IMG/VR virus record: IMGVR_UViG_3300023174_000034
Direction: 5' to 3' (one strand)
DNA length: 64,000 bases
Origin: a virus
Lineage: Duplodnaviria; Heunggongvirae; Uroviricota; Caudoviricetes
Part shown: positions 19,788 to 62,987 of the stretch, piece after piece
Layout: each line of letters opens with the position of its first letter
Position numbering within the stretch: the first letter of the stretch is position 1
Notes under the pieces: generated by a model
Told to the model about the DNA's origin: nothing
Database searches by the model: none
Seen by the model: the letters and a program-made list of their open reading frames with translations, nothing else
Translations under genes and position numbers: made by a program

Positions 19788-19836
19788 CTATTCCGTAATC
19801 ACTGATCCACATAAATAATACAAATGGAGTCCTGCT

Positions 19837-20106
19837 GTGCTTAGGAAAACTAAGAGCATTTTAGAAGAACTTGACAGCCTTTTTGTCGATAAAGACAAAG
19901 AAAACGTGCTGGAAAGTCGTGCCGACCATGTTATACAAGGTGCAATCAACCTTATTAACACTATCCGCGAAAGCTACGATAGTGAGTCTGCTTCTGAATT
20001 AGAAAGACGTTTGCTCAATAGTATACGTGCTCAGGATCCAAAGAAATTTATTCGTGGAATCAGGAGAATACGTAGTGAAAGCCCATCATCTAACAACGAA
20101 GACTAA
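19837..20106 (+). CDS. hypothetical protein, probably late
   Basis: Follows TAAATA at 19812 and a GGAG RBS. Confidence 0.7.
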   Translation: MLRKTKSILEELDSLFVDKDKENVLESRADHVIQGAINLINTIRESYDSESASELERRLLNSIRAQDPKKFIRGIRRIRSESPSSNNED

Positions 20107-22537
20107 CCTAGTAGCAGAAGCGCATCCTATATACAAGGAAGCATACAATTTTGCTCGTGAGTTAAACAAGCTAACAGAAGGCAAGGATCTCAATCCGGGT
20201 GAACGCTTCACGCTGTTTACCAACATTGAACAAGCAATGACAGACGGCGGCGGCAATCGCACCATGATAGGCAAAGCTGGCGAAATGGCCAGCGTCGTTG
20301 GTGCCAAGATCAAAGGCCTGGCACAAGCACTACAAGACACTACACCAGTCAAGGGTGTGGATAGTATGTTTGATGACCTGAAGCGAAAAGCATCAGCCAG
20401 CATGGGCAAGAGCACACAAGGCTCTACTGTGCTTCGTGCGCTGGATCAATACAAACAAATTGTACAAAAACATCCAACTACCAGTAAGTTCTTCTGGGGC
20501 GTGGCCGGTGTACTGACAGGTTTACTAACTGGCGGCGCAGGCCCAGTTGTGGCACTAGGTGCTATCAAGATGATTGACAGCATGGTGCAAGGAAAACAAT
20601 TCAGCACATCAGTTGGTGCTGGCCTAGGTGCCGCAGGTACAGCACTAGGTGCAAAAGCTGTTGTGCAAGGTGCAGATGCTGCCGCACAAGGTATATCATC
20701 TGCCGCGGATGCAGTACAGCACGGCGTGAAATCAGCAACAGATGCTGTTCACAACTTTGACCCAAGCACACTAAACCCATTCCACAAGCCCACAGTAACA
20801 CCGGGTGGTGAAACAGTAGTACCGTCAACCGGTGGCACAGAAGTAGTGCCACCTAATGCCCCTGTTGCCCCTGGCGCAGAGACACAGGCTATTGCAATTA
20901 AAAAAGGTGACACTTTGAGTCAGTTGGCTGACAAATACAAAGTAAATCCTGATGAAATAGCAAAACTAAATCCGGGCAAGTTTGGCCCCAACGGTAATCC
21001 TAACGTGATTAACCCGGGTGATCAAATTGTATTGCCAAAGAATATTGATGCCGCTGCCTACAAAGGTGCGTACCAAGGCGACAATGCCATGACAGCGCAG
21101 AATATTTTGAACAAGCAACAGGCAGGCCAATATGGTGCAGATGGTGGTATGGCCGCCAAAGCTGTTGCCAATGCCAAAGCAGGTGCAGGCAAAGCAGTAG
21201 CAACCAAAAGTGCTACCGCGCCTGCGCAGGCAGCAGCCGGAGGTAATGACATTATTGGTACCATTGCCAATAAATCTGCACAAGCGGCCAAGGCTGCTCA
21301 AGGTGCCGTTCAGCGTGGCGGCGATATCATTGCCAATCGCCTGCCAGAAACTTTCAAGTTCAAAGCAGGCCGTGGTGTGTTAGAAGGAATCCAACTTATC
21401 ACATTGCCTACAGTTCTGATGGTAGACAAAGAGACCACGGTTCGCAAATGGGCACTGAATGAAAGTCTTGGACGCAAACGCAATTCAGTACAAATGAATG
21501 AAACTGGTGTGATGACACTGTTCATGAACCTACAACGTATCAGCGAAGCAGTCAACCCTGATCGTCCTGAAAGTCAAACGCCCGAAGCTGAAGCCAAACG
21601 CCAAGCCCGTGCTCAAGCTCGTGCTGGCAACACAAGTACCACAGCTGGCCCACTGGGTGGCCTGCCTGGGGGCAATGTAGGCGGACTAGCTACTGGTCAA
21701 GCACCAGCTGGAAATACTATGCCTTATCTGGCAGCAGATCCAGAAGGCAAGTTTGATACCAAGTACAAAGGTGGAACTAGCACAGGAGCATCAAGAGGTG
21801 TTGAAACTAGCCTGGGACGTGCGGGTAACTGGATCAAAGACAAGTGGAAAGATATGACCACTAAAGTCACTGCCGCTGGCCTAGAGCGTCATTGGAAAGA
21901 TGCAAATAGTCCTACAGACTCAGATCAAATTGCACAACAAGTGCTACAACGTCTAAAAGTTCCTAATGATGTGATAACACAAGTGTATCAACAACTGGGA
22001 TTGCCTGCACCTAACCTACCACAAGTTGCAACTGATGCACAAGGAAATGCACGTACTTACGCTGATGGCACAGTTGCCATGACAGGTGGTGCTGACGCTG
22101 GTGCCGCTGGCGGCGAAGCAGATGGTCAACAAGGTGGACAACAAGGTGGACAACAAGGTGGTGCCGCAGGTGGACAACAATCCCAAGCTGCCGTAAAACG
22201 TGAAATTGACCAAGAGATTGATGATATGATGAGATCATTGCTACGCATGGATAACCGTATGCAACCTGCAATGGTCAAGTACATTCGTGATAGACTAGAT
22301 CAACATTTTCCAGCAGCCGCTGCCGCACCGGTACCGCAAGCTACATCACAAGCCAGACCTGCACTAGGGCCACAAGCCGCAAATACATCAGGTACTGACC
22401 CACACACGATCCCGGCACCTGTTAGGACAGGCACCAACGAGTCACGCAAGCGCACATACGGCGGCAAGTACGTTAAAGAATCAGCTGATCAAAAGCTAGC
22501 ACGTGAGTTTGAAAACTTCTTACTCAAGCAGGAGTAA
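20075..22537 (+). CDS. large Ala/Gly-rich putative virion protein with LysM domain
   Basis: IAIKKGDTLSQLADKYKVNPDEIAKLNP...INPGDQIVLP is a LysM repeat; GTG start after AGGAG. Confidence 0.7.
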   Translation: MKAHHLTTKTNLVAEAHPIYKEAYNFARELNKLTEGKDLNPGERFTLFTNIEQAMTDGGGNRTMIGKAGEMASVVGAKIKGLAQALQDTTPVKGVDSMFDDLKRKASASMGKSTQGSTVLRALDQYKQIVQKHPTTSKFFWGVAGVLTGLLTGGAGPVVALGAIKMIDSMVQGKQFSTSVGAGLGAAGTALGAKAVVQGADAAAQGISSAADAVQHGVKSATDAVHNFDPSTLNPFHKPTVTPGGETVVPSTGGTEVVPPNAPVAPGAETQAIAIKKGDTLSQLADKYKVNPDEIAKLNPGKFGPNGNPNVINPGDQIVLPKNIDAAAYKGAYQGDNAMTAQNILNKQQAGQYGADGGMAAKAVANAKAGAGKAVATKSATAPAQAAAGGNDIIGTIANKSAQAAKAAQGAVQRGGDIIANRLPETFKFKAGRGVLEGIQLITLPTVLMVDKETTVRKWALNESLGRKRNSVQMNETGVMTLFMNLQRISEAVNPDRPESQTPEAEAKRQARAQARAGNTSTTAGPLGGLPGGNVGGLATGQAPAGNTMPYLAADPEGKFDTKYKGGTSTGASRGVETSLGRAGNWIKDKWKDMTTKVTAAGLERHWKDANSPTDSDQIAQQVLQRLKVPNDVITQVYQQLGLPAPNLPQVATDAQGNARTYADGTVAMTGGADAGAAGGEADGQQGGQQGGQQGGAAGGQQSQAAVKREIDQEIDDMMRSLLRMDNRMQPAMVKYIRDRLDQHFPAAAAAPVPQATSQARPALGPQAANTSGTDPHTIPAPVRTGTNESRKRTYGGKYVKESADQKLAREFENFLLKQE
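22127..22162 (+). repeat. 3 x 12-bp tandem repeat encoding QQGG
   Basis: CAACAAGGTGG(A/T) x3. Confidence 0.8.
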
Positions 22538-22539
22538 AC

Positions 22540-23313
22540 ATGCAGTTAACTGAAGGCGGCAATATTTGGCCAGATGTAGTGGACATCAAGAAAGAGTATG
22601 TTCCTGGCGTGTTGAAATTCGTGCAGGCCGCCCTGCCCAGCTTCAAGGTGGAGCCACACATTGGCTCTGCAGGTTTCAAGGTTGCAAGTGGGGACATGGA
22701 TTTGTTCCTAGACCAAGATCAAGTTATTGAAAAAGCCGGTACCAAGGACGATAAAAAAGACCCTGTAAAAGCAGCCAAGCAGTGGCTCGCTAATGCTTTG
22801 ACCGAAAAAACAGGCCTCCAGACCATAATGAAAGGGCGCAATGTACACATACGTGTGCCACTTCCTGATGGTACGTTTGGACAAGTAGACCTCATGGTCA
22901 TTCCAAATGCTACTGGGGTTGCACCTTGGCATCAACATGGACCGCGTGGTAGTTATGATGATCCTGACTTCAAAGGTAATGCCATATTCATCCTGATGAA
23001 CAGCATAGGTAAACCCCTAGGCTTGAAGTTTGATGCATTTAGTGGTAACCTGCTACGACGCGACAACAATGAACCGGTTGCCGGCCCGGATCGAGATTCT
23101 GTTGCAGACAAGTTAATTCCTGGTGCAACAGGAGCAGATTTCAACAGCGTAAAGAGTATCATAAAAGCACTGGCTGATGATCCTCAACGTGATCTTAAAC
23201 TGGCACAGGCTCGCGATGACGCTGCCAAGGGCATACTTAATTTGCACGAGCCAGTTGCTGAAGGTTCATCTACATGGTTCCGCCAGATGCAAAATATTCT
23301 GGTAGATCAATGA
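22540..23313 (+). CDS. Pol-beta-superfamily nucleotidyltransferase-like protein
   Basis: HIGSAG...GDMDLFL...QVDLM (GS, DxD, third Asp). Confidence 0.6.
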   Translation: MQLTEGGNIWPDVVDIKKEYVPGVLKFVQAALPSFKVEPHIGSAGFKVASGDMDLFLDQDQVIEKAGTKDDKKDPVKAAKQWLANALTEKTGLQTIMKGRNVHIRVPLPDGTFGQVDLMVIPNATGVAPWHQHGPRGSYDDPDFKGNAIFILMNSIGKPLGLKFDAFSGNLLRRDNNEPVAGPDRDSVADKLIPGATGADFNSVKSIIKALADDPQRDLKLAQARDDAAKGILNLHEPVAEGSSTWFRQMQNILVDQ

Positions 23314-24329
23314 AAATACATGAATTTATCAACGAAGGCGGGTGGGATACTACAGTAACACAAGGTACTGTGATCAAGCCTGCGGTGGTTAAAATTGCAC
23401 TAGGTGTTGTGCAGAAATTTGTGCAAGACTTCAATGCATGGCTAGAACAACAAGGATCCAGTCCAGTACAAATGGGCACACCAACAGGTTCTAGTGCGTA
23501 TCATGAACGTGATACACAAAACGATCCAGACAAAGTGTACGGTGACATTGATCTGCAGATGATTGCTCCTCCTGTAGAAGGGCTAACATACGGACAGTTT
23601 ACTGGTCACTGGAACAAACTAGCAGACGAGTTTGTTAAAACAACAAATCCTGGCTATGTACATCCTGTGGAAAGCAAGCCAGGGCATCCTATCATTCAAA
23701 TAGGTGACGGCGCATTTGTACAAGTAGACTTCATGTGGCATGAGCCCAAGATGCGAGCCTGGGGTGCCGCCCGTGTTACTCCAGAGCATGGTGTCAAAGG
23801 TCTACTGACAGGCAACATGTGGAGTGTGTTTGGCGAACTGCTGGACATGAGCATACAACATGCTGGCGTACAGTTAAAGGTCATTGACAATGAGCGTGTG
23901 CCTTTCAGCAAACAAAAAGACACAGAGACTGTGACAGTATCTACAAATCCTGAATCATTTATCTACGATACATTCATGTACCTGGCACAGCAAATGGGGG
24001 TGGAACGACCCAAGATTCGTCCTGCACTAAAGACATATGGTGGTGTTAATATTGCTGATGTCAAGATTGGTAAGATGGTGCAAGGACTCAAAGCATTTGC
24101 TGAAAGCTGTGAAATCAATGGCATGTTTGGCCAAGGCGACCTAAAGAACTTTGGCTCAGCGCAAGATTACTTAAATAAGTTTTGGGCACGGTATCAAGAA
24201 AAAGCCATGATAGACATCGCAGGCAAGAAACGTGACAAAGCGCAAACTCCAGATGCTATTGCTAGAGCTGACGCAGATAGAGCAAAAATACAACAGGGCC
24301 TTGACATGGTGCAGGGCTATTTCAGATGA
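23310..24329 (+). CDS. Pol-beta-superfamily nucleotidyltransferase-like protein (paralogue)
   Basis: PTGSSA...YGDIDLQM...QVDFM; start re-set to ATG 23310. Confidence 0.6.
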   Translation: MKIHEFINEGGWDTTVTQGTVIKPAVVKIALGVVQKFVQDFNAWLEQQGSSPVQMGTPTGSSAYHERDTQNDPDKVYGDIDLQMIAPPVEGLTYGQFTGHWNKLADEFVKTTNPGYVHPVESKPGHPIIQIGDGAFVQVDFMWHEPKMRAWGAARVTPEHGVKGLLTGNMWSVFGELLDMSIQHAGVQLKVIDNERVPFSKQKDTETVTVSTNPESFIYDTFMYLAQQMGVERPKIRPALKTYGGVNIADVKIGKMVQGLKAFAESCEINGMFGQGDLKNFGSAQDYLNKFWARYQEKAMIDIAGKKRDKAQTPDAIARADADRAKIQQGLDMVQGYFR

Positions 24330-25459
24330 AAATAACAGAAATATTTGCACGTAAACCACAAGTGATCAAGGAAGGCATTGTGCATCCTGAGGATGCTATT
24401 TGGACTGACGGCATTGCTGGCGCACAACAGGCCATTGCAGGCCTTGCTGCCATGGCACAAGGTAAAGAACTTACTACCATCAAGTGGGACGGATTCCCTG
24501 CACTGGTGTTTGGACGCAACGTGGACGGACAGTTGATGGTAATGGACAAACACATGTTTGAAAAGAAGTCCGGCGAAGGCCGTGTTACCAGTGCTGAAGA
24601 ATTCCAACAATATGACATCAACCGTGGTGCTGACCGTGCTGACTTGTACGGCAAGATAAACCTGCTATGGCCGGCACTGGAAACCATCATTCCTGGCAAC
24701 TTCAGGGGCTTTTACTTTGGTGATTTGCTGTACGCAGGACGCCTACAGCCCACGGATGGCTTCTATGTATTCAAGCCCAACACAGTTACCTACAAGGTTC
24801 GAGCAGACAGCGACATGGGCGCACGAGTCGGTAATAGTGTGGCAGGCATTGCTGTACACAGTTTTATTCCCAGCATTGGTGAACCAGATCAGCCATTAAA
24901 AGGCACAGGCGGCTTGCCCAAAGACGGTAATCCAATTTGGTTTGTGACAGGTGAAATGCCTGTGCCCAAGGTCAAGATGGACAAGACCGCAGTGGATGCG
25001 GCCAATGCAGAAGTTAAAAAATACAACCAAGCAGTCACTGACTTCATTGGACAACTCACGCTAATGAAAGCCAAAGGCATCATTGGCTTGGCCAGCAAGT
25101 ACATTACCAGCAAGATCTCCGCAGGCAACTTTGATAACATGCTTGACGGCTTTTATGATTACCTTGGTAAAAATCTAAGTCCAACAGCGGCTGAAAAATT
25201 ACTAGGTGGTGGCAAAGGCTGGCTGTATGGTGAAGGCCAAACAGGCCTGCAAGGTATGTTTGCAGTCTGGGTTGCTATCTACAACCTAAAGATCAACATC
25301 AAGCAACAGATTGACGGACAGCAGGCCACAGGTGATATACAAGCCTTCACTGGCCAAGATCCTGGCCATGAAGGCTATGTTGTGGGTGGTGGCGCAGACA
25401 AGTTCAAGTTGATTGACCGACTGGGATTTAGCAGAGCAAACTTTGCTAAAAATGGCTGA
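24326..25459 (+). CDS. ligase-like covalent nucleotidyltransferase-fold protein (DUF6267-like)
   Basis: TIKWDGFPALVFG (motif I KxDG), FGDLLY, HEGYVV, KLIDR. Confidence 0.55.
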   Translation: MKITEIFARKPQVIKEGIVHPEDAIWTDGIAGAQQAIAGLAAMAQGKELTTIKWDGFPALVFGRNVDGQLMVMDKHMFEKKSGEGRVTSAEEFQQYDINRGADRADLYGKINLLWPALETIIPGNFRGFYFGDLLYAGRLQPTDGFYVFKPNTVTYKVRADSDMGARVGNSVAGIAVHSFIPSIGEPDQPLKGTGGLPKDGNPIWFVTGEMPVPKVKMDKTAVDAANAEVKKYNQAVTDFIGQLTLMKAKGIIGLASKYITSKISAGNFDNMLDGFYDYLGKNLSPTAAEKLLGGGKGWLYGEGQTGLQGMFAVWVAIYNLKINIKQQIDGQQATGDIQAFTGQDPGHEGYVVGGGADKFKLIDRLGFSRANFAKNG

Positions 25460-26010
25460 TGCTAGAGTTCATACAAGATCTCAAAGAAGCTAGGATGTTT
25501 CGTGGTGCAGGCGGACTGCGTGGGCAGTCAGCACATCAGCTGGGCAAGACCTTGTATGTGGCTTTGCTAGCACTAGAACTTGCTCGCAAAATAGATGAAT
25601 ATGCTGTGCGTAACTATGCCGTTAAAACCCTACAATTTGGCGACTTTGATAGTATGCGTATGGGCACCACAGACGTTGCAAACTTAGTGTGTATACTAAA
25701 CAATCAAAGCGAATACGAAGAAAAAATTCAAGTAGATTTTGATGTCAGCGCACCCATGCTACAGATCAACAGCTACATGCAGAACCTCAAACAACGTTAT
25801 TTTTCGTCTGGCATGGTACGTCAGTTCTTTCTTAATCTAGAAGCCATGCTACAAATCAACGACAGCACCCTATGGAGTGTGCGCCGCACAGTGATAGACT
25901 GGCGCAGGGCCACAGACATGGAAAAACGCATGGCAATTGATAATATACGCAGAGAAATACACCGACACTCTTTGCTGTTGGACATAGTGGAACTACTGCC
26001 AAATATGTGA
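25459..26010 (+). CDS. hypothetical putative virion protein
   Basis: MLEFIQDLKEA leader; coupled ORF. Confidence 0.6.
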   Translation: MLEFIQDLKEARMFRGAGGLRGQSAHQLGKTLYVALLALELARKIDEYAVRNYAVKTLQFGDFDSMRMGTTDVANLVCILNNQSEYEEKIQVDFDVSAPMLQINSYMQNLKQRYFSSGMVRQFFLNLEAMLQINDSTLWSVRRTVIDWRRATDMEKRMAIDNIRREIHRHSLLLDIVELLPNM

Positions 26011-26072
26011 GATTTTTGTCTCAATCATAAATATTTACAAGCGCATAGTCGCTATATATTAGGAGAAATAAA

Positions 26073-26516
26073 ATGGCTGTATTTAACAGAGTAAATGGTG
26101 ATGCACAAAACGTAAATTTCGTTGGTGGTGATGTCACAAGAAACGCAAACAGTAAAATTATCAGCACAGGCGTTGCTGGTCCTTTGAATGTTTATAATAT
26201 TGAAATCTTGGGTAACCTGGCAGCAGAGCTAGGCGGACCAAACGGTTCTGGTGTGGCCGGTGCAGTTGAGACATTGTTGAAAACAATTTCAAGCAATGCT
26301 TCAGTTCTTGCATATCAAGTCAACCCAGCTAACACTGGCACAGCAGCCGGCGCTTTAGGTGCTAGCATGACAGTTCTAGTAGAGCGTTCAGGTTGGACCA
26401 GCAATGCCGCATTGCAAACTGTTATTCGTACACTGGGTAACATTGGTAGCACAGGTACAGTTACAGCAACCAACGCAGAAGTTGTTGACACACACTTTGC
26501 TTATCGTCGTCCATAA
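26073..26516 (+). CDS. putative structural protein
   Basis: Own TAAATA (26028), strong AGGAGA RBS and terminator; G/A/T/N-rich. Confidence 0.6.
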   Translation: MAVFNRVNGDAQNVNFVGGDVTRNANSKIISTGVAGPLNVYNIEILGNLAAELGGPNGSGVAGAVETLLKTISSNASVLAYQVNPANTGTAAGALGASMTVLVERSGWTSNAALQTVIRTLGNIGSTGTVTATNAEVVDTHFAYRRP

Positions 26517-26535
26517 TCACATTCACCGTGACATT

Positions 26536-26560
26536 AAAAGCACCCCCGGGTGCTTTTTTT
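26536..26560 (+). terminator. Rho-independent terminator
   Basis: AAAAGCACCC-C-CGGGTGCTTTTTTT. Confidence 0.75.
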
Positions 26561-26576
26561 GTGACTAAATATCTGT

Positions 26577-27017
26577 ATGAGCACTATCCACGAACGAACT
26601 GTTATAGGTTATACATTGGTTGACATCACTGAAACCAAGATGATTCGTGACCTGGATGGAAAAGAACTAGAGCGTAATCAACAACGCAACTGGGAAACAG
26701 TTTTACAATGTATTGGACTACGAGCACAGCCACAAAACATGGCCTGGCGGGTAGACGAAGTATCATTGGAAAACTATGAGTTTGGCGATCTATACAAAGG
26801 TATCCATAAGGTATGGAGTTTTGCATTCACCACAGACTACCCTGGCGTGTTTGATGACGGTAAAGATCCTATAGGATTACTTGAAAGTGATTTTGATGAA
26901 GTACCGGTAGTCACATATCTATCTGAGACTGCACGGTTCTTGTTGCCATTGTTTTACACTGCCGGAGCAATCAAAAACATATATTTTATGATTCCGGACT
27001 CTGTCGTAAATACATAA
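26577..27017 (+). CDS. hypothetical protein
   Basis: ORF starting 5 nt after TAAATA (26566). Confidence 0.7.
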   Translation: MSTIHERTVIGYTLVDITETKMIRDLDGKELERNQQRNWETVLQCIGLRAQPQNMAWRVDEVSLENYEFGDLYKGIHKVWSFAFTTDYPGVFDDGKDPIGLLESDFDEVPVVTYLSETARFLLPLFYTAGAIKNIYFMIPDSVVNT

Positions 27018-27105
27018 TAGATGTAATAAGCATCATTGGCATTTCATTACGGCACATATCAAGGCTCATCAATCACAACATCTCAACATTAAGGAGTGTA
27101 GTCCT

Positions 27106-27363
27106 GTGGCGACTAACATAGAAAAGAATAACCTTGAGGCCCATGTGGAATTATGTGCGGAAAGGTATGATAAATTGGAAACTAAACTAGATAGTCTTGA
27201 AAAGAAAGTCGAGGGGTTAGAAACTCACGTCATTGAAATCAAGCAGGTTCTAGCAGGGGCTGGAGACAAACAAAGTAAACAAATAATTGCCATTGGTACT
27301 GCGATTATCAGTGTGTTAATCACTGGACTGATCACAGTCTTGGTACACTTTATAAACAAATGA
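27106..27363 (+). CDS. coiled-coil protein with C-terminal TM helix (holin/XhlA-like architecture)
   Basis: Heptad-like region followed by IIAIGTAIISVLITGLITVLVHF. Confidence 0.5.
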   Translation: MATNIEKNNLEAHVELCAERYDKLETKLDSLEKKVEGLETHVIEIKQVLAGAGDKQSKQIIAIGTAIISVLITGLITVLVHFINK

Positions 27364-27569
27364 AAATAATAGAGGTCATGGCTGGGCTACACATGCCCAT
27401 CACAAATGAAGAATCAGACCTCTTATCAAAATTCCATGAAGGAAACAGCGTGTCTCGCAAGGATCTAAATGAAAGGCAAATTGAAGTGGCCAATCATTTA
27501 GTCAACCGAGATGTACTGTATAGAAAGAATCAAGATGGGCGCATCACATACTACAAAAAAACGCCGTAA
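27360..27569 (+). CDS. hypothetical protein
   Basis: Coupled ORF. Confidence 0.6.
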   Translation: MKIIEVMAGLHMPITNEESDLLSKFHEGNSVSRKDLNERQIEVANHLVNRDVLYRKNQDGRITYYKKTP

Positions 27570-28128
27570 AAAACACAATCCACAACTAGCAGAAAGAGCC
27601 ACATTTCAAGCGGCAGTAGAAACCACAGCAGAGATAATGGCTCGGCTGTTGGAGAAATTCACTCGAGAAGAACTTACTAGACTATCAGCATCAAAAGAAT
27701 TTGTTTGCGTAGATCTAGCACGTAATTTATACAGAGTAGGACGGTTTAATCTACAAAAAGTTTCAGCAACATGTTGGATTGTAAAAGACTCAAACGGCAG
27801 GGTCATACACGAATTTTACAACTGCCAAGCGGCAGTGTTTTACTGCTTGTACGAAAGCAGATCATTGTTCAAGAGGGCACACGAATTTCTACAAACAGAT
27901 ATAGAACTAGGGCGCACTCACCATGAAGTCAACGAATATCTGGCACATCTACGTACGGCCATGCAGAACAAAGATAGCTTCAAGCAAGATCTCTACCTAG
28001 CAAGACTAAGCTGGGTAAAACCCAGGCTAGAACAGCTGGAAAGTAATCTACAGAAAAGTATTACCAGTGCTAAATACAGTAAAGTTTGGGAAACTAACAA
28101 CCATGAAACTGCAAGAACTCGCAACTAG
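27511..28128 (+). CDS. hypothetical protein
   Basis: 205-aa ORF; start uncertain. Confidence 0.6.
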   Translation: MYCIERIKMGASHTTKKRRKKHNPQLAERATFQAAVETTAEIMARLLEKFTREELTRLSASKEFVCVDLARNLYRVGRFNLQKVSATCWIVKDSNGRVIHEFYNCQAAVFYCLYESRSLFKRAHEFLQTDIELGRTHHEVNEYLAHLRTAMQNKDSFKQDLYLARLSWVKPRLEQLESNLQKSITSAKYSKVWETNNHETARTRN

Positions 28129-28810
28129 ACCAACATCACGTAAGATCAACAAGGTCAACGAAACCCGTTTTGGGTTCCGCATTGATTATGATGCTCTTAC
28201 AATCCGCAAAGCTCGCGCATTGAGCTCAGCCTTGTCAGAAAACCTGACAAAACTAAAACAAAGTTTTGGTGTACACACCGCTGAAAAGAATCCAAAGTAC
28301 ATGGAACTTATCATGGTGCGTGAAGGCCTTAATCGCTGGCTGGACGAAAATCGTCCGCTGACAGAAAGTGAAATCGCCAAGTCTGGCGCTATCCTAGCTG
28401 CCAAAGACATTGTTGACAGCTTCCAGGACATGTTGGAAGATATCAGCAAAATGCAAAACGAACAGATGCCAGCATTGCTGGACACTATTCGTGACCAAAT
28501 TGGCCAGCCACAAGCTGACTCATTCAAAGGTACTTTGACACCACTGTTGCAAGAACTAGTAGGTAGCCTACAACAAGCTCGTGAAACTGCTGATGCAGCC
28601 GCACGTACTTTGGCTGGTGAACAAGTTGCCGCACCCATGGGCATGCCAGGTGCCGCTCCGGGTGGTATAGGACCGGATGAGATGGCTGGTATGGCCGCAG
28701 GCGAAGTACCCGGTGGTATGCCTCCAAGCGATATGGATTCCGGTGACGAGTTTGCTGCCACAGATGCTGCCGCAGGTGGCGATGAGTCACTAGGCCGCGC
28801 AAAGCGTTAA
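28103..28810 (+). CDS. hypothetical putative head/scaffold-type protein
   Basis: MKLQEL leader, internal LTE, acidic low-complexity tail. Confidence 0.6.
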   Translation: MKLQELATRPTSRKINKVNETRFGFRIDYDALTIRKARALSSALSENLTKLKQSFGVHTAEKNPKYMELIMVREGLNRWLDENRPLTESEIAKSGAILAAKDIVDSFQDMLEDISKMQNEQMPALLDTIRDQIGQPQADSFKGTLTPLLQELVGSLQQARETADAAARTLAGEQVAAPMGMPGAAPGGIGPDEMAGMAAGEVPGGMPPSDMDSGDEFAATDAAAGGDESLGRAKR

Positions 28811-28813
28811 ACA

Positions 28814-29194
28814 ATGCGTATCCGTGAACTCCTGAGAGAGGACTCGGAAGGCGATCTCGTAGCACAGATTTTGACTGTGCTTGAGTTTTTGCGTAGTCGA
28901 GATCATAACAAGAAACTCCTGCCCAAGCATTCCACGGCAGGAGTTATTAACATGATAAACAACATGTCATCCGGCGCCATGGTGACATACGAATTACTAG
29001 ACCAACTGAAGAACAGCAACAAAACAATTGGTGCTCTTGTTACCAATATGGACCGCGATAGTCTGAGTCTTAAATCATTTGGTGACGAGCCAGGTGCACC
29101 ACAAGAGCCAGCAGACACAGGTTCGGGCAACTCTAAAGATCCAACAAATATTGTCAATGCAATGGCTAAAAAAGCCGCTGCCAATCGATCCTAA
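28814..29194 (+). CDS. hypothetical putative virion protein
   Basis: MRIRELLRED leader. Confidence 0.6.
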   Translation: MRIRELLREDSEGDLVAQILTVLEFLRSRDHNKKLLPKHSTAGVINMINNMSSGAMVTYELLDQLKNSNKTIGALVTNMDRDSLSLKSFGDEPGAPQEPADTGSGNSKDPTNIVNAMAKKAAANRS

Positions 29195-29860: not shown

Positions 29861-30238
29861 ATGGCATATTCAGACAAAGTAATTGATCATTATGAAAACC
29901 CACGCAATGTGGGCAAGCTAGAAATTGACGACACAGTCGGCACAGGCATGGTAGGTGCACCTGCCTGCGGCGATGTTATGAAACTACAGATAAAGGTGCA
30001 AGATGGCATTATCACGGACGCAAAATTCAAAACATACGGTTGCGGATCAGCAATCGCCAGCTCAAGTCTTGTTACAGAGTGGGTCAAGGGAAAAACGCTT
30101 GACGAAGCGGGAAAGATTACTAATTCACGAATTGCTGAAGAACTTGCCCTCCCACCGGTTAAAATACATTGTAGCATTCTTGCAGAAGATGCTATTAAAG
30201 CGGCTGTAAATGATTACCGTAACAAGCACAGCCAGTAA
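29861..30238 (+). CDS. iscU: Fe-S cluster scaffold IscU
   Basis: YSDKVIDHYENPRNVG, GAPACGDVM, FKTYGCGSAIAS, LPPVKIHCS. Confidence 0.95.
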   Translation: MAYSDKVIDHYENPRNVGKLEIDDTVGTGMVGAPACGDVMKLQIKVQDGIITDAKFKTYGCGSAIASSSLVTEWVKGKTLDEAGKITNSRIAEELALPPVKIHCSILAEDAIKAAVNDYRNKHSQ

Positions 30239-30530
30239 AAAGATCCTGGATAGTATTGCCAAACGAGGCCATGGCATTGGCATCAAAGTTGGCATACGAA
30301 CCACTGGTTGCTCTGGACTGGCTTATGTGCTAGAATATGTTGACGAAACATGGGAAGGATCAACATCTTTTCCGCAGGATGGATTTAGCATTATCATTGA
30401 CACAAGAGATCTTGCCATCGTAGAAAATATAGAAATAGACTATGTTCGTCAGGGCCTTAACGAAGGCTTTGAATTCAATAACCCTTTGGAACGTGACCGT
30501 TGTGGTTGCGGAGAATCTTTTAGAATATGA
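30210..30530 (+). CDS. iscA: Fe-S cluster A-type carrier IscA
   Basis: TTGCSGLAY...FNNP...CGCGESF. Confidence 0.92.
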   Translation: MITVTSTASKKILDSIAKRGHGIGIKVGIRTTGCSGLAYVLEYVDETWEGSTSFPQDGFSIIIDTRDLAIVENIEIDYVRQGLNEGFEFNNPLERDRCGCGESFRI

Positions 30531-46087: not shown

Positions 46088-46433
46088 CTTTATCACACCA
46101 CCATCAGCAGTCACTGACACATTTCCATCAGTGCTGATCATTGATGCTGACTGGAACGATATAGACAGCGTGGCCATCTGGTGCAAGACTGCATCAGTCA
46201 GTCTCAACATCTACTTGTACAGTGATATTTTTCTAAATGAAACATGGCTGGCCGGCGCCATAAACAAATCTGACAACATAATTATGAACATTGCATCCAG
46301 CGCAGTTGATCACATCAAGCGAGATCTTATCAAAGCACCTAATGTTTGGTACTATGGTGACAAGACATTTTTAGGCAACGATCAAAAGATCGCAGGTGTG
46401 ATGGATTGGTTCGTGACACGATATGGCAACTGA
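46068..46433 (+). CDS. hypothetical protein
   Basis: Coupled ORF. Confidence 0.65.
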   Translation: MAEPYSNFITPPSAVTDTFPSVLIIDADWNDIDSVAIWCKTASVSLNIYLYSDIFLNETWLAGAINKSDNIIMNIASSAVDHIKRDLIKAPNVWYYGDKTFLGNDQKIAGVMDWFVTRYGN

Positions 46434-47631
46434 TCCACATGTACATCATATGAGTTGTGACTTCTGCGGCAAAGCCCGTAGCGAAGTCCACAAGCTCATT
46501 GTAGCAAACGAAGCCGCTATTTGTAATGAATGTATTGAGCTGTGTGCCAATATTCTAGACAAAGAGCGCATTGACAATATCAAAACAGACCGCAAGGTAA
46601 ACCGAGTGCTGGATCCGCAAAAGGTCAAACGGTATCTGGACAACTATGTGATTGGCCAAGACATCGCAAAGATGGCACTGAGTGTTGCAGTGGTCAATCA
46701 CTACAAGCGAGTGTTCTTCAAACCCAAAATTGAATTAGAAAAAAGCAATCTGTTGATGTTTGGTCCCAGTGGCTGTGGCAAAACTTTGCTGGCCAAAAGT
46801 GTAGCACGTTATCTCAATGTGCCTTTTGTTATTGCAGATGCCACTACCCTTACCCAGGCTGGTTATGTGGGCGAAGACGTCGAAAGCCTGATAGGGCGAC
46901 TGCTTTCTGAAGCAGATAATGACATAGAACGATGCCAGCAGGGCATTGTTTTCATTGACGAGATAGACAAGATCAGCCGCAAAGGCGAAAGTGCAAGCAT
47001 CACTCGTGATGTATCAGGCGAAGGTGTACAGCAAGCACTACTCAAAATGGTAGAAGGCACCAAGTGCCGTGTCACAATGAATGGTAGCAAAAAACATCCA
47101 GCAATTGAAACAGTGGAAATTGACACCAGCAATATTTTATTCATTGCAGGTGGCGCATTTGATGGCTTGGAAAAAGTAATCGAACAGCGACAGCGTGGTT
47201 CTGGTATTGGGTTTGTCTCCAACAAAGAGCCCACCAGCGTGACACAGCATGTGACACCTGAGGACTTTATGAAGTATGGGATGATTCCAGAGTTCGTAGG
47301 ACGCTTTCCAATCTCAGTGCAACTAGAACCTTTGACATTGGAAGATTACACCAGGGTCCTAATAGAGCCAAAGAACAGTTTGTTGGAACAGATGCAATTT
47401 TATTTTCACGCAGACGATATTGCATTGACATTTGAAGACGCGGCAATCCTGGCCATAGCACAGCAAGCAATAGAACTGGGTATTGGAGCACGTGGTTTGA
47501 AGACAGTAATGGAGCACACAATGATGCCCATGATGTACAGTATCCATACCATGAAAAAGAACGGCATCAAAGAGTTATCCATTGATGAGTCAATGATAAC
47601 TAATTATACATCTATATCAGGAACCACATGA
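46423..47631 (+). CDS. clpX: ClpX AAA+ unfoldase
   Basis: Zn domain CDFC..CNEC, YVIGQ, GPSGCGKT, GYVGEDVE, IDEIDKI, RDVSGEGVQQALLK, IGF loop. Confidence 0.93.
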   Translation: MATDPHVHHMSCDFCGKARSEVHKLIVANEAAICNECIELCANILDKERIDNIKTDRKVNRVLDPQKVKRYLDNYVIGQDIAKMALSVAVVNHYKRVFFKPKIELEKSNLLMFGPSGCGKTLLAKSVARYLNVPFVIADATTLTQAGYVGEDVESLIGRLLSEADNDIERCQQGIVFIDEIDKISRKGESASITRDVSGEGVQQALLKMVEGTKCRVTMNGSKKHPAIETVEIDTSNILFIAGGAFDGLEKVIEQRQRGSGIGFVSNKEPTSVTQHVTPEDFMKYGMIPEFVGRFPISVQLEPLTLEDYTRVLIEPKNSLLEQMQFYFHADDIALTFEDAAILAIAQQAIELGIGARGLKTVMEHTMMPMMYSIHTMKKNGIKELSIDESMITNYTSISGTT

Positions 47632-47864
47632 GATACAAGCCAGAAAAAATCCAAGGATTAAAAGTAGAAGTAGTCAACGACCAAGTTGAAAAAGCCCTGC
47701 GTAAGTTCAAGAAAAAAGTAACCGAAAGCGGCCTGCTACAAAGTTTGCGTGAACGTGAGTTCTACGAGAAACCAACAACTGCTCGTAAAAAGGCCAAAAG
47801 CCAGGCCAAGCGCCGTTGGCAGAAAAAACTCCAAGCGGAAAGTTTGCCCAAAAAGATGTACTAA
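47628..47864 (+). CDS. rpsU: 30S ribosomal protein bS21
   Basis: EKALRKFKKK...LREREFYEKPTTARKK. Confidence 0.9.
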   Translation: MRYKPEKIQGLKVEVVNDQVEKALRKFKKKVTESGLLQSLREREFYEKPTTARKKAKSQAKRRWQKKLQAESLPKKMY

Positions 47865-47866
47865 AA

Positions 47867-47897
47867 TTGACATCTCCTGAGATTTCAAGTATAAATA
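47867..47897 (+). promoter_or_regulatory. overlapping sigma70 and late-type promoter of hsp20
   Basis: TTGACA-17-TATAAA, where the -10 is part of TATAAATA; UUCG-capped leader hairpin at 47902-47926. Confidence 0.65.
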
Positions 47898-47956
47898 TAC
47901 ATGTAGGACGCCTTCGGGGTCTTACAGACATACTTGCTTAATAAAGGAGAAAACTT

Positions 47957-48409
47957 ATGTCAACTCATCTATATCTAGACCTACCTGCATTGCAACGACA
48001 ATTTGTGGGCTTCGATCAACTGTTCGAAGATATCAATCGCGCATTCGCCGCGACCAAACAAGACAACTATCCCCCGCACAACATCGTACGTATTGGTGAG
48101 AACCGTTACGTGATCGAAATGGCTGTGGCTGGCTTCTTGGAAAATGAATTGGACGTAGAAACTGTCACAAACGGTTACGGTCAAAACATTCTCACCATCC
48201 GCGGAGAACGTCTTCGTGACGAAGATGCAGATCGCCAATACCTACATCGAGGTCTGGCAACTCGCAACTTTGAGCGTAGCTTTCCATTAAATGAAAATGT
48301 GGAAATTTCGGCCGCTACTGTGGCCAATGGCATTCTGACAATCACACTGGATCACAAGATTCCGGAAACGCAGAAAGCCAAGAAGGTTGCAATTACTTTC
48401 TCTAAGTAG
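47957..48409 (+). CDS. small heat-shock protein Hsp20 (IbpA-like)
   Basis: NYPPHNI...IEMAVAGF...YLHRGLATRNFERSF...NGILTI. Confidence 0.92.
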   Translation: MSTHLYLDLPALQRQFVGFDQLFEDINRAFAATKQDNYPPHNIVRIGENRYVIEMAVAGFLENELDVETVTNGYGQNILTIRGERLRDEDADRQYLHRGLATRNFERSFPLNENVEISAATVANGILTITLDHKIPETQKAKKVAITFSK

Positions 48410-48462
48410 TATAATATAGGCTATAGCTACAATCTGTAGCCTAACATTACAGAGAGAAAACA

Positions 48463-48786
48463 ATGTCCGATACAGCAATCAAACCACGTGTTGAAGGTGC
48501 TCTCAAGCACGATCCTAAACTGAACATCCAAGAGCCAAGGCAGTTCAAGGTTATCTTTGTCAATGACGAAGTGACCACCATGGAGTTTATTGTGGAATGT
48601 TTGAAAGCCATATTCCGCTACGAGGAAGAAGCGGCACATGCCAAAACTGTTCAAGTCCATGAAGAAGGATCTGGCGTGGTTGGTGTGTACCCATTTGAAA
48701 TTGCTGAACAAAAGGGCATTGAGGCAACTGTGCTTGCCCGTAACAACGGCTTCCCCTTGCAAATCAAACTAGAAGTGGACAACTAA
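48463..48786 (+). CDS. clpS: N-degron adaptor ClpS
   Basis: FKVIFVNDEVTTMEFIV...VHEEGSGVVGVY..EIAE.K...FPL. Confidence 0.9.
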   Translation: MSDTAIKPRVEGALKHDPKLNIQEPRQFKVIFVNDEVTTMEFIVECLKAIFRYEEEAAHAKTVQVHEEGSGVVGVYPFEIAEQKGIEATVLARNNGFPLQIKLEVDN

Positions 48787-54939: not shown

Positions 54940-55068
54940 ATGTTCGATTATCTTGTTACAGCTCTTATGTGTGTTGCAGGCTTAGTTATGCTCTGCGCCA
55001 TAATTATTGGCTTTGTCAAACTAATCGATCTTTTCTTAAACACTTTCAGCGATCGAGACCCATGGTAA
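54940..55068 (+). CDS. 42-aa membrane peptide (not in ORF track)
   Basis: MFDYLVTALMCVAGLVMLCAIIIGFV...; 6 nt after TTGACA-18-TATACT (54904-54933). Confidence 0.55.
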   Translation: MFDYLVTALMCVAGLVMLCAIIIGFVKLIDLFLNTFSDRDPW

Positions 55069-56099
55069 CTAAACGAATTGGCTTTGCATGTAAATGGCTC
55101 AATGATCCTAGCGAATGCGGAGGCATGAAGGTGAATGCAGTGGATCGTGAACTAAACGGACGCTCAACCACCATGCGCTGGCTCCGTGAGCACAAAGACG
55201 AAGCCGAACAACGCCAGTGGGACATCATGAACCACAATGCTGTGGCGGCTGTGAAAATGATTGAGCGTGTGGCCACACTGCCTGCAGAACGTAGAATGGT
55301 GCGTCTAGGTTCAGAAATGCTACAGGGCTATACCGAACCGTCGTGGATTGACTGGTGGCAACGACAAGAGATACAAGATCACTGTGCAAAAATCTTTGCA
55401 CCCATTGGCGAAACTGCCAGACGACTAGATGTACGTCTAAGTTTCCACCCAGGCCAGTTTTGCGTACTGGCCAGTGAGAGTGATGAGATTGTGGAACGCA
55501 GTATTTTAGAATTTGAATATCACGTTGATATGGCACGGTGGATGGGCTACGGTGCCACATGGCATGACCATGGATTCAAGATCAACGTGCATTTGTCTGG
55601 TAAAGGTGGTCCAGACAAGTTCCTTAAAACTCTAGGCAAACTCACGCCCGAAGCCAGGAATCTTATTACCATCGAGAATGATGAGATGACAAATGGATTG
55701 GACTGTACTCTTGCTGTTGGTGAACATGTGGCTCTTGTTCTTGACCTTCACCATCATTGGATCAACTCGAATGGCGATTACATCCTGGCAACGGATGATC
55801 GTGTTCGCAGGGTTATTGACAGCTGGCGTGGTACTCGTCCTGCTTTGCATTACAGCGTTAGTCGCGAAGATATTCTTGTGGATCATTGCACCCGAACTGC
55901 TCCCGATATTGTTGGACTCCTTGATGGAGGCTATAAAAAGCAAAAGCTCAGGGCACACAGTGACTTCTATTGGAATGATGCTGTGAATGAGTGGGCTGTG
56001 CAACACTTGACCTGGGGCGACATCATGTGCGAAGCCAAGGGCAAAAATCTAGCCAGTGAGCAAATATACACACTGGCTAAAGAGCTATCAATTATTTAG
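55062..56099 (+). CDS. uvsE: UV damage endonuclease UvsE/UvdE
   Basis: RIGFACK, VRLGS, RLSFHPGQF, NVHLSG, TIENDE, VLDLHHH, HSDF, CEAKGK. Confidence 0.9.
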   Translation: MVTKRIGFACKWLNDPSECGGMKVNAVDRELNGRSTTMRWLREHKDEAEQRQWDIMNHNAVAAVKMIERVATLPAERRMVRLGSEMLQGYTEPSWIDWWQRQEIQDHCAKIFAPIGETARRLDVRLSFHPGQFCVLASESDEIVERSILEFEYHVDMARWMGYGATWHDHGFKINVHLSGKGGPDKFLKTLGKLTPEARNLITIENDEMTNGLDCTLAVGEHVALVLDLHHHWINSNGDYILATDDRVRRVIDSWRGTRPALHYSVSREDILVDHCTRTAPDIVGLLDGGYKKQKLRAHSDFYWNDAVNEWAVQHLTWGDIMCEAKGKNLASEQIYTLAKELSII

Positions 56100-56106
56100 G
56101 AATCAA

Positions 56107-57207
56107 ATGAGTTATTTATTTACTAGTGAATCAGTGTCCGAAGGACATCCAGACAAAGTAGCAGACGCAATCAGTGACGCAATTCTTGATCTTGTTATGA
56201 GCAAGCAAGACCCTGCACTACGTTGTGCCTGCGAGACCCTGGTTACTACCAACCGTGTTATTGTGGCTGGAGAGTACAAAGGTATTCTACACTCAGAAGA
56301 AGTTGACGTTGCAGTACGCAAAGTTATCAAAGATATTGGGTATGAGCAAACAGGATTTGACTGGCGCACACTTGAAATCACCAACCTGCTACACGGTCAA
56401 AGCGCAGACATTGCACTGGGTACAGACACGTTTGGCGCTGGTGACCAAGGACTTATGTTTGGTTATGCTTGCAACGAAACATCTAATCACATGCCCAGTG
56501 CCATCTACTACAGTCACAAGATTGTGGAACACCTGACACAGGTACGTAAACAAGGCAAGTTACCTTGGCTTGGCCCAGATGCCAAGAGCCAAGTTACATT
56601 TGAATACAACGACGATGCCACACCCCGGCGTATTGCCAAAGTTGTGTGCTCAACACAACACAGTGATGATATGTCCATTGATGTGGTACGTGCCGCTGTA
56701 GAAGAAATTATCCGTCAAGTCTTACCAATGGAGTTTATAGATGATACCACTGAGTTTCATATTAACCCTACTGGCCGTTTTGTTATTGGTGGCCCTGATG
56801 GGGATACAGGGCTTACCGGCAGGAAAATTATTGTTGATACTTATGGCGGTTATAGCCCCCACGGTGGTGGCGCTTTTAGCGGTAAAGATCCTACTAAGGT
56901 AGATCGCTCTGCCGCATACATGATGCGCTACATTGCCAAGAACATTGTGGCAACGGGTCGCGCCAATTGGGCCACTTGCCAAATCAGTTATGCCATTGGA
57001 CTGGCACAACCCATGAGCTTCTACATTGAAGTTGCAGATGCAGAACTAGGTCGTGAACTTACTAAATGGGTGCAAGAAAACGTAGATCTCACACCAATGG
57101 GTATTATCAAACGTTTTGATCTGTTCCGTCCTATCTACAGTTCAACTACCAACTATGGACACTTTGGTAAAGCCGATTTACCATGGGAACGAATTGATTT
57201 GTTCTAA
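56107..57207 (+). CDS. metK: S-adenosylmethionine synthetase
   Basis: FTSESVSEGHPDK, GAGDQG, INPTGRFVIGGP.GD.GLTGRKII, GGGAFSGKD. Confidence 0.97.
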   Translation: MSYLFTSESVSEGHPDKVADAISDAILDLVMSKQDPALRCACETLVTTNRVIVAGEYKGILHSEEVDVAVRKVIKDIGYEQTGFDWRTLEITNLLHGQSADIALGTDTFGAGDQGLMFGYACNETSNHMPSAIYYSHKIVEHLTQVRKQGKLPWLGPDAKSQVTFEYNDDATPRRIAKVVCSTQHSDDMSIDVVRAAVEEIIRQVLPMEFIDDTTEFHINPTGRFVIGGPDGDTGLTGRKIIVDTYGGYSPHGGGAFSGKDPTKVDRSAAYMMRYIAKNIVATGRANWATCQISYAIGLAQPMSFYIEVADAELGRELTKWVQENVDLTPMGIIKRFDLFRPIYSSTTNYGHFGKADLPWERIDLF

Positions 57208-58689: not shown

Positions 58690-58922
58690 TACTGGCCGTT
58701 GTTGTTCTACTTGCAGGCTGTGCAACCAGTCCGCAGGTGGACGACTTGTCAACCATGAAACCCGACTGCACCAATGCGGTGTTTCAGGTCAAGTCATTGG
58801 AACGAGAGTTGGCACATCGCGGGTACGATGCTAGTAATAGCGATTTCGAACGCAGGTATGTCAACAATGCAAAAAACATCATCTGGACGCTGAGGAGCAC
58901 ATGTTTACAAAGAATACAATAA
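58674..58922 (+). CDS. lipoprotein
   Basis: Lipobox LAGC; start uncertain. Confidence 0.6.
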   Translation: MVPRVILAVVVLLAGCATSPQVDDLSTMKPDCTNAVFQVKSLERELAHRGYDASNSDFERRYVNNAKNIIWTLRSTCLQRIQ

Positions 58923-59158
58923 TGATTCTGTTTGTTACTTGTTCCACGCTGGTGGGTTGTGGAACACTGGAACGAACACCAGTCATGACTGTGCAAGAAG
59001 CAGACAACTATCAAGTCAACTGCAACATGAAAAACGAACAACTTGAGTTCCTGTCCAGATATGTGGCAAGCAATAAGAAAACTGTATACCAGACAGATGC
59101 TTTGTCGCAGGCCGTGATCAAACGTAAGATTAACTATCTCCACAGTTGGTGCAAATGA
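58901..59158 (+). CDS. lipoprotein
   Basis: Lipobox LVGC. Confidence 0.6.
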   Translation: MFTKNTIMILFVTCSTLVGCGTLERTPVMTVQEADNYQVNCNMKNEQLEFLSRYVASNKKTVYQTDALSQAVIKRKINYLHSWCK

Positions 59159-59748
59159 AAACCCGTGCCTTGCTACTTGTCGCTATACTTGCACAACCTG
59201 CGTTTGCAGAGTGCTACCTACGGTCTAGCACACTCAATCAGTTCAAGGGCACAATTGAACGTACCGCAGACGTGGCCCGTGATGTTGTGGTCATGCCACC
59301 AGATCGGATGCAATGTACAGTGACCTTTCGTGTGATGTTGGACGGAGTCTGGCATACTGCACAAGGCCAGGCCATTGGTTCGGATTCAACAAGTGAAAAC
59401 CAATTGTGTGCCCAGGCGCAGGACATTGGTCGGTCGAGACTGATGCAAAAGATTGATGGTAGCCAAACCAGCGTAAGCCAAGAAATGGTTTGTACAGATC
59501 AGGACATTCCACAGATCCGAAGCCGCCCTGTCAAGATCGGTGACCTAGTGCGTGAAAGCGAAATGGCTCCGCATTGGGATTTGAGCAAACGAATCAGCTT
59601 TGCCCATCGTGGTATGGAATGCCGTTGGTTCATGGAAACCTTGCCCTATGGTGTGAGTGGCATGGTCCAAAGCATTGGCATGATGTGCAAATTGGATAAT
59701 AACCGTTGGCGCATCACGGACAAGTGGATCAATTCGATTGACAAGTAA
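59155..59748 (+). CDS. secreted Cys-containing protein
   Basis: Signal peptide ending PAFA/EC. Confidence 0.65.
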   Translation: MKTRALLLVAILAQPAFAECYLRSSTLNQFKGTIERTADVARDVVVMPPDRMQCTVTFRVMLDGVWHTAQGQAIGSDSTSENQLCAQAQDIGRSRLMQKIDGSQTSVSQEMVCTDQDIPQIRSRPVKIGDLVRESEMAPHWDLSKRISFAHRGMECRWFMETLPYGVSGMVQSIGMMCKLDNNRWRITDKWINSIDK

Positions 59749-59800
59749 TTGCCATTTCGTTTATAATTAACTATCGTAACTTTGTACCGAAAGGTGTTGT

Positions 59801-62137: not shown

Positions 62138-62276
62138 AATGACCCACCATGGTGAAAAAATTGCTGGATTCATGATCATAGCAATGATTATCTATCTGTT
62201 TATAGCACAATAATCGTCATGGGCTAACCTGCAAGCCATTTGCACCTTGCAATAAATACACAATCAGGGTGCAAAC

Positions 62277-62987
62277 ATGCGATTAAATGAATTTGATATA
62301 ACACCAGCTTTGGTGTTCCACGACCAGCTAAATCCAGCTCTATGGGAGGGTAACTTACTGCGTCCGGACGTGCAGGCCAAGCTGTTGAAAATTGCCGACG
62401 ACTTCCAAGACTTCATTGGCGTGAGCATCTACGATGTGCTAGATATCACTATATCAGGATCCAATGCAGCCTTCACTTACACACCTAGATCAGACATCGA
62501 TCTACACCTTGTGGTGATGATTCCTGGCGCACATGAAGAAGAACTGCGTGAATTATTTGATGCAAAGAAATACCAGTATAACGATACCTTTGACTTCAAG
62601 ATCCATGGATACGATGTAGAACTGTATGTGCAAGATGCTGAGCAAGAGCATCACAGCATGGGTATCTACAGCGTGAAAAACAACAAATGGTTGAGCGAGC
62701 CAAAACAGATTCGTGCCACAATCGACGACATCTCAGTTGAAAACAGATATCGCACTTACATTTCTCGTATACAGTCAGCCACAGCAGAAGATGACATGGA
62801 CAAGAGCCAAAAGCTATGGGACCACCTTAGAGGCATGCGACAAGCTGGTCTAGCACAGGGCGGCGAATTCTCGCCTGAGAATGTTACATTCAAATTATTA
62901 CGTGCCGAAGGCTATTTGCAAGACCTACGTGACCACATGGTAGCATTGAAAACCCAGGCCATGAGCATGGAGGGTGCAAATGCGTGA
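62277..62987 (+). CDS. Pol-beta-superfamily nucleotidyltransferase
   Basis: ISGSNA...SDIDLHLVV...DVELY; MRLNEF leader; TAAATA at 62253. Confidence 0.7.
   Translation: MRLNEFDITPALVFHDQLNPALWEGNLLRPDVQAKLLKIADDFQDFIGVSIYDVLDITISGSNAAFTYTPRSDIDLHLVVMIPGAHEEELRELFDAKKYQYNDTFDFKIHGYDVELYVQDAEQEHHSMGIYSVKNNKWLSEPKQIRATIDDISVENRYRTYISRIQSATAEDDMDKSQKLWDHLRGMRQAGLAQGGEFSPENVTFKLLRAEGYLQDLRDHMVALKTQAMSMEGANA

Follow-up and report, generated by a model that had tools for sequence, protein, structure and literature searches.

The three coupled genes analysed here, called A, B and C, encode two nucleotidyltransferases derived specifically from family-X polymerases (PolX) and an enzyme predicted to have the fold of the ATP-dependent ligases, and each protein begins with a short leader ending in a site of the type cut by the T4 head protease gp21. 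Our tentative reading is that they form a head-processed unit for the add-and-seal repair of broken RNA, RNA being a likelier substrate than DNA. The genes lie in a 64-kb window (the whole stretch of DNA that was analysed) from an uncultured, T4-like giant phage. The folds, the intact catalytic residues, the genetic linkage, the register of the cut site and the detection of distant homologues in virions are observed.

All three genes are on the plus strand. A (22540..23313, 257 aa) starts 2 nt past the stop of the preceding gene; B (23310..24329, 339 aa) overlaps the stop of A by 4 nt, and C (24326..25459, 377 aa) overlaps the stop of B by the same length, so that the coupling described in the initial annotation is seen directly in the overlapping stops and starts. 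The stop of C in turn overlaps the start of the next gene, at 25459. A start for B at 23274 was ruled out; the true start is at 23310, as in homologues. Directly upstream of A, and on the same strand, is the gene for a large LysM-domain protein (20027..22537; Pfam LysM, E 3e-9), whose start codon is uncertain and whose position is conserved in close relatives. The first gene of the operon (19837..20106, plus strand) encodes a small virion-type protein (phrog_11854 'virion structural protein', E 7e-19), and is headed by a T4-type late-promoter-like box at 19810..19817, presumably functional, which is one of eight such boxes on the plus strand of the window. There is no such box directly before A at 22540, the nearest being the one at 19810, two genes upstream, and matches to sigma-70 promoters are at chance level. 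The description of the genes as late therefore rests on the structure of the operon, by which A, B and C probably sit in a late operon. Genes for a primase and a DnaB helicase are found just upstream of it.

C is followed in close relatives, as it is here, by a conserved, coupled gene of 183 aa (25459..26010, plus strand) with a leader-like N-terminus, for which no family match was obtained in Pfam, PHROG or NCBIfam searches. This gene and three further downstream genes (27360-27569, 28103-28810 and 28814-29194) are syntenic in close relatives and have similar leaders. Two of the four match PHROG 'virion structural protein' families, and the genes from 25459 to 29194 are probably a cluster of head-core proteins. 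In some relatives (L014, L015 and L024-L026), an extra gene of 320-570 aa lies between B and C. The window contains no tRNA, and the operon has no gene for an end-healing kinase or phosphatase; related contigs, which are up to 354 kb long, have 19-46 tRNA genes. A gp21-family protease is found in three of five related contigs, the Rnl2 family is absent from all five, and Rnl1 is present in one. Relatives of the phage also encode a separate, canonical ATP-dependent DNA ligase of 440-462 aa. Elsewhere in the window, at 29861-30530, 46423-48786, 55062-57207 and 61145-61768, there are host-like genes, recognised by sequence alone: these appear to be an IscU/IscA-like pair and genes for ClpX-like, ribosomal S21-like, small heat-shock, ClpS-like, UV endonuclease-like, SAM synthetase-like and ClpP-like proteins.

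More than 550 homologues were found for each of A, B and C. Both A and B have the hallmarks of the Pol-beta nucleotidyltransferases (GS, DxD and a third Asp on a palm fold): G42, D52, D54, Q115 and D117 of A are invariant among 126 sequences of 25-54% identity. The catalytic motif of B (G60-S61, D79, D81, Q138 and D140) is invariant too. From these motifs A and B had been taken for paralogues. The relationship is not detectable pairwise (E 0.09); it is found when profile is compared with profile (probability 73, E 3e-5), in an alignment that includes the shared Lys-Gly, and distant paralogy is supported at profile level only. When used as single-sequence queries, A and B retrieved nothing from cultured phages, which were reached only with a profile or a distant homologue, and sequence searches of the PDB were uninformative.

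The AF2 model of B (pLDDT 90), which includes a helical C-terminal extension, gives family-X polymerases in all of its top nine structural rows (Z 8.7-10.2 over 168-193 residues), among them Pol beta, TdT, Thermus PolX, African swine fever virus (ASFV) Pol X (Z 9.6), Pol lambda and Pol mu, and matches in Foldseek at E 6e-4. TUTases, OAS and CD-NTases match the palm only, at Z 8.4 or less, the CD-NTases over about 110 residues and at Z 7.1 or less. CCA-adding enzymes and MenT do not appear among the structural matches listed for B, and neither they nor the CD-NTases gave a match in Pfam or NCBIfam. For A, a profile built from diverse members matches a profile of 13 PolX sequences from viral contigs (probability 96.5-98, E 8e-10). 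The corresponding comparison is not significant for B, whose assignment to PolX therefore rests on structure. A PolX-type palm and thumb are thus seen in B by structure and in A by profile, and we conclude that both derive specifically from family-X polymerases, and probably not from the CCA-adding, MenT or CD-NTase types that had been suggested: Z for B is 8.7-10.2 with PolX against 8.4 or less with all others listed. Identification as RlaP was also rejected, there being no match to PF10127 for A, B, the unlinked enzyme D (described below) or the 126 A-family members.

Neither A nor B has fingers or an 8-kDa lyase domain, and both differ from PolX at the residues that deal with the template. 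In Pol beta, the nascent base pair is read by Asn279 and Arg283. In the alignment with A and B the helix-N Asn of PolX is variable, the helix-N Arg column is occupied by Ala (40%), Ser (32%) or Asn (21%) in A and by an invariant Ser in B, and the palm Arg-Arg is absent from both. The two Arg features are kept in 13 of 13 PolX sequences, and were not part of the search pattern by which those sequences were fetched. The aromatic sugar-gate/GS-turn motif is also replaced in A and B, where the sequence alignment shows a conserved Lys-Gly together with an insertion; Tyr271 of Pol beta keeps rNTPs out (PMC5537341). Because the sugar-gate motif and the template-reading Asn and Arg are missing, templated gap filling by A and B is doubtful, and their sequences suggest that they are PolX descendants that are probably no longer templated, dNTP-specific polymerases.

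C is a member of Pfam DUF6267 (E 6e-31) and matched no other Pfam family, those of the RNA ligases included. Foldseek alone gave no significant match, and for the AF2 model of C (pLDDT 91) the top 22 structural rows are all DNA or RNA ligases, with Z of 5.2-7.3. Ligase motif I, which the initial annotation had recognised, is invariant as K53-x-D55-G56 in 40 diverse sequences, and D133 (motif III), E349-G350 (motif IV), and K361 with R365 (motif V, here a single invariant Lys and then an Arg) are conserved at 90% or more in the same set. Each Z value is modest by itself, but the uniform ligase list agrees with the conserved motifs, and the model gives C the nucleotidyltransferase fold of ATP-dependent ligases, in which motifs I, III, IV and V are present. 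The models thus have the folds that were originally claimed, nucleotidyltransferase for B and ligase for C.

The OB domain is missing from the model of C, the protein ending 16 residues past K361; there is a helical insertion at about residues 220-333, between motifs IIIa and IV, and a conserved N-terminal HxED. Rnl5 is the best structural match (Z 7.3-7.6, about 1 Z unit ahead), and the closest viral structures that have a name are RNA ligases. As these values are modest and the DNA ligases follow within about 1 Z unit, the fold does not decide between RNA and DNA, and the model leans weakly to RNA. A role for C as the replicative ligase was rejected: relatives of the phage encode the separate DNA ligase noted above, so that C would be accessory. 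No mention of DUF6267 was found in the literature searched. Records of cultured cyanophages and pelagiphages with the family number more than 100, and many uncultured giant phages also have it. An ESM Atlas cluster of 65 viral proteins has DUF6267 fused to a Cu/Zn superoxide dismutase domain.

The mechanism that we put forward tentatively would begin late in infection, when A, B and C would be made and a prohead protease of the gp21 type would remove their N-terminal leaders by cutting after Glu. The head would carry at least the nucleotidyltransferases, which would be released at an early stage of the next infection. A and B would extend a 3'-OH by one or a few nucleotides, reading little or no template, and C would adenylate itself on Lys53 and then seal the ends. 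The likeliest targets would be RNAs, such as tRNAs, that have been cleaved by nucleases of the host's defences. What we infer here is that the enzymes are packaged by this phage, injected and active, and that their substrate is RNA; the add-and-seal reading draws on the intact catalytic sets and on the frequent linkage or fusion of A to C. The lean to RNA comes from the lack of an OB domain in C, its best matches to RNA ligases, the separate DNA ligase and the many tRNA genes of relatives, and the loss from A and B of the PolX gate motif and helix-N Asn/Arg. Counting against an RNA substrate is the descent of A and B from DNA-repair polymerases; counting against add-and-seal repair are the lack of an end-healing gene in the operon and the occurrence of C in cyanophages, where there is no A and C pairs with a HIGH-type nucleotidyltransferase instead.

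Those same polymerase origins could point to DNA: minimal PolX enzymes and an OB-less ligase might fill and seal the nicks, gaps and cuts that the phage genome has as it enters the cell or replicates. The palm and thumb that A and B share with family-X polymerases (ASFV Pol X included), the precedent of a PolX-ligase fusion (PMC5537341), the DNA ligases close behind the RNA ligases for C, and the primase and helicase next to the operon are all consistent with this, and we nevertheless consider it rather unlikely. Such a kit would have to work with Ala, Ser or Asn for the helix-N Arg, with a gate motif replaced and interrupted by an insertion, without the palm Arg-Arg that PolX retains, and without fingers, lyase or OB domain, in phages whose relatives already encode a canonical DNA ligase.

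The repair of RNA by A-B-C as a unit draws on the linkage of its genes. A lies within 3.5 kb upstream of C at 48 of 51 distinct loci, and B at 30 of 51, the usual gene order in relatives being A-B-C. A is fused to C in 29 of 150 A-family representatives, in both orders, one of them being C-B-A. Among Pfam architectures the A-C fusion accounts for 28 of 79, against 6 or fewer for any other passenger, the rarer partners being HIGH-type nucleotidyltransferase, HAD, NUDIX, GNAT, ART and Tad3. A Glu site is present at the internal fusion junctions (40/40 and 20/23, against a background of 7.7%), and the fusions are therefore cuttable polyproteins. Since they take many passengers, fusion is weakened as a sign of a common pathway. 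Four polyproteins (P0494, P0448, P0446 and P0361) combine A-family domains with Tad3 (a Thoeris inhibitor), ART-PolyVal, NUDIX plus HIGH, or GNAT, and have protease-like sites at the borders of A; the NUDIX plus HIGH polyprotein has three copies of A. A single-protein query did not find a fused or nearby HIGH domain in a complete relative (G002).

A homologue of A with a KxDG gene adjacent or near is also found in the cultured jumbo phages PA5oct, Atu_ph07 and Phosso. The PA5oct neighbour, gp256, is tied to DUF6267 (profile probability 83; BFVD E 2e-4), and those in Atu_ph07 and Phosso gave no profile tie to it. In Flavobacterium phage immuto_2-6A (L205:3498-7654), the gene after a homologue of A encodes a protein of 907 aa with the annotation NadR/NMNAT, which begins with a second, weakly A-like nucleotidyltransferase, and an NT5C-type HAD phosphatase gene comes next, making this possibly a cultured example with an end-healing partner.

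That three unrelated nucleotidyl-transfer folds (Pol-beta, ligase and HIGH) are co-fused, with ART-PolyVal, GNAT, Tad3 and NUDIX among the passengers, raises the question of whether the proteins share a packaging route and nucleotide chemistry and not a repair pathway. A, B and C would then nucleotidylate proteins or small molecules, as host take-over or anti-defence effectors like Alt, an idea with which the loss of the DNA-reading residues of PolX and the recurrence of HIGH partners in cyanophage virion proteomes would also agree. We regard it as unlikely: the linkage of A with C is far more constant than that of any passenger, C retains the ligase motif set, and the best structural matches are nucleic-acid enzymes and not AMPylases, MenT or CD-NTases. 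Interference with nucleotide-signalling defence, as raised in the initial annotation, found no support except in the promiscuous polyprotein neighbours. A broader proposal, which we consider decidedly unlikely, is that A and B represent nucleotidyltransferases of a widespread, injected class which lost template reading as they evolved from PolX and become active only once a fixed Gly/Ser-Gly N-terminus has been exposed by the head protease (or by removal of Met). Together with the DUF6267 adenylyltransferase, and within minutes of the start of infection, these would modify a non-canonical acceptor, which could be a host protein, a defence signal or the N-terminus of the enzymes themselves.

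Delivery of the add-and-seal unit in the head would depend on its leaders. In T4 the internal proteins and Alt have propeptides of 7-19 residues, cut after Glu by gp21 (PMC9026906). The leader of A has 5 residues and ends at Glu5|Gly6, and those of B and C end at Glu9|Gly10 and Glu16|Gly17, so that a gp21-type site ends a short N-terminal propeptide in all three. The conserved body begins at a Glu followed by Gly, Ala or Ser in 115/119 homologues of A, 119/120 of B and 108/115 of C. Members of the A family have [Gly/Ser]-Gly as their mature start, preceded directly by Glu (101 proteins) or by the initiator Met (17), with about three true exceptions, and Ser replaces the first Gly in 8 of the 17 Met-start proteins compared with 1 of the 101 Glu-start proteins. 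The fixed register fits a real cut site, and the alignment hints that the free N-terminus of the A family matters.

In PA5oct, gp253 (A family, E 6e-23), a leaderless version of A, is flagged ESI-MS/MS in the virion annotation (PMC7318152), and the virion table of S-CREM2 lists gp156, a protein with 35% identity to D (PMC10665884). Relatives of C were undetected in the virion proteomes of S-SZBM1 (gp141), S-CREM2 and PA5oct (gp256), which counts against a packaged kit. The virion packaging originally proposed therefore has evidence from homologues for A and D, and none from the three proteomes for C. The versions of C in S-SZBM1 and S-PM2 have no leader, whereas C here has one. S-CREM2 (L200) has at 58914-59762 a shortened DUF6267 in an open frame of 309 aa, far from its HIGH and D genes and missing from the virion table. 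A loose leader pattern is present in 8/28 non-structural virion proteins of S-CREM2 and in 8/134 other ORFs (p 0.0015, partly post hoc), and the strict x-x-E-[GAS] pattern is not enriched in its virion proteins (p 0.4). The authors of these virion proteomes caution about co-purification, which is a possible explanation of the detection of homologues. That the module, or at least C, acts undelivered in the cytoplasm late in infection, its leaders leading to inactivation or incidental encapsidation, is very doubtful: the three undetected relatives of C, the caution over co-purification and the finding of only about half (9/17) of the leader-bearing proteins of S-CREM2 in virions would suit it, against which stand a fixed mature N-terminal register that argues for cleavage to a functional form, the homologues of A and D present in virions, and the lack of a leader on the undetected cyanophage C.

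D (62277..62987, plus strand) was at first grouped with A, B and C. It is a Pol-beta-superfamily nucleotidyltransferase with Glu as third acid (phrog_36119, E 4e-44; Atlas NTP_transf_2 clusters), and does have a late-promoter-like box of its own, at 62251..62258 on the plus strand. Profile comparison did not match it to A, B or PolX; it lies 37 kb from A-B-C and was rejected as part of the module, being of a separate family and unlinked. Leaders containing Glu had been described for all four proteins; motif statistics bear this out for A, B and C, and the leader of D is less canonical.

If the add-and-seal unit is injected, it would provide a pre-emptive counter to host nucleases, before any phage gene is expressed. 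The identification of DUF6267 as a ligase-fold partner of PolX-derived nucleotidyltransferases provides a phage gene that is very common with a function that can be tested, and the cultured phages with the pair (PA5oct/Paride, Atu_ph07 and Phosso) allow that test to be made.

Several known systems can be compared with A-B-C. The short propeptide ending in a hydrophobic-x-Glu gp21 site is shared with T4 Alt and the internal proteins (PMC9026906), and Alt is likewise an enzyme carried in the head, as we would expect of A-B-C; the enzyme classes are different. Rnl5 (Naegleria, 5COT), Rnl2 and Rnl1 share with C a KxDG adenylyltransferase core lacking an OB domain (Z 6.4-7.6), at 10-13% identity and an rmsd of about 4.7, whereas the helical insertion of about 110 residues and the N-terminal HxED are particular to C, which matches no Pfam RNA-ligase family. 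ASFV Pol X is, like A and B, a palm-and-thumb-only PolX with neither fingers nor 8-kDa domain, and works with an ATP-dependent ligase, the ASFV DNA ligase (PMC5537341). It differs in that neither the gate motif nor the helix-N Arg is present in A and B, the OB domain is missing from C, and here there are two paralogues with bacteriophage head-protease leaders. In PgVPolX of Phaeocystis globosa virus a PolX core is fused to a ligase (PMC5537341), as in the A-C fusions of relatives, but PgVPolX has the lyase, the fingers, a Tyr sugar gate and an NAD+-dependent ligase, and it is the A-C fusions that have a protease site at the junction. RlaP is a Pol-beta nucleotidyltransferase that adds 1-2 NMP to the 3'-OH of damaged RNA ahead of ligation (PMC12776372), and RlaP systems with an RNA ligase are common in jumbo phages (PMC7824862). 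Here too a Pol-beta nucleotidyltransferase is encoded beside a ligase; however, A, B and D have no PF10127 match, a PolX thumb is present in A and B, a DUF6267 protein takes the place of Rnl1, Rnl2 or RtcB as the ligase, and descriptions of RlaP include no leaders or protease sites. The A-B-C unit would thus be a functional analogue of RlaP and its RNA ligase, built from different parts. The combination was first thought to have no characterised example, and RlaP with RNA ligases (PMC12776372) and PgVPolX (PMC5537341) are in fact precedents for a Pol-beta nucleotidyltransferase with a ligase. The parts of A-B-C belong to known superfamilies and their logic has precedents; beyond the pairing of A with C, what A-B-C adds is the loss of the template-reading residues of PolX, a fixed mature N-terminus, a homologue of A in virions, and cultured model phages.
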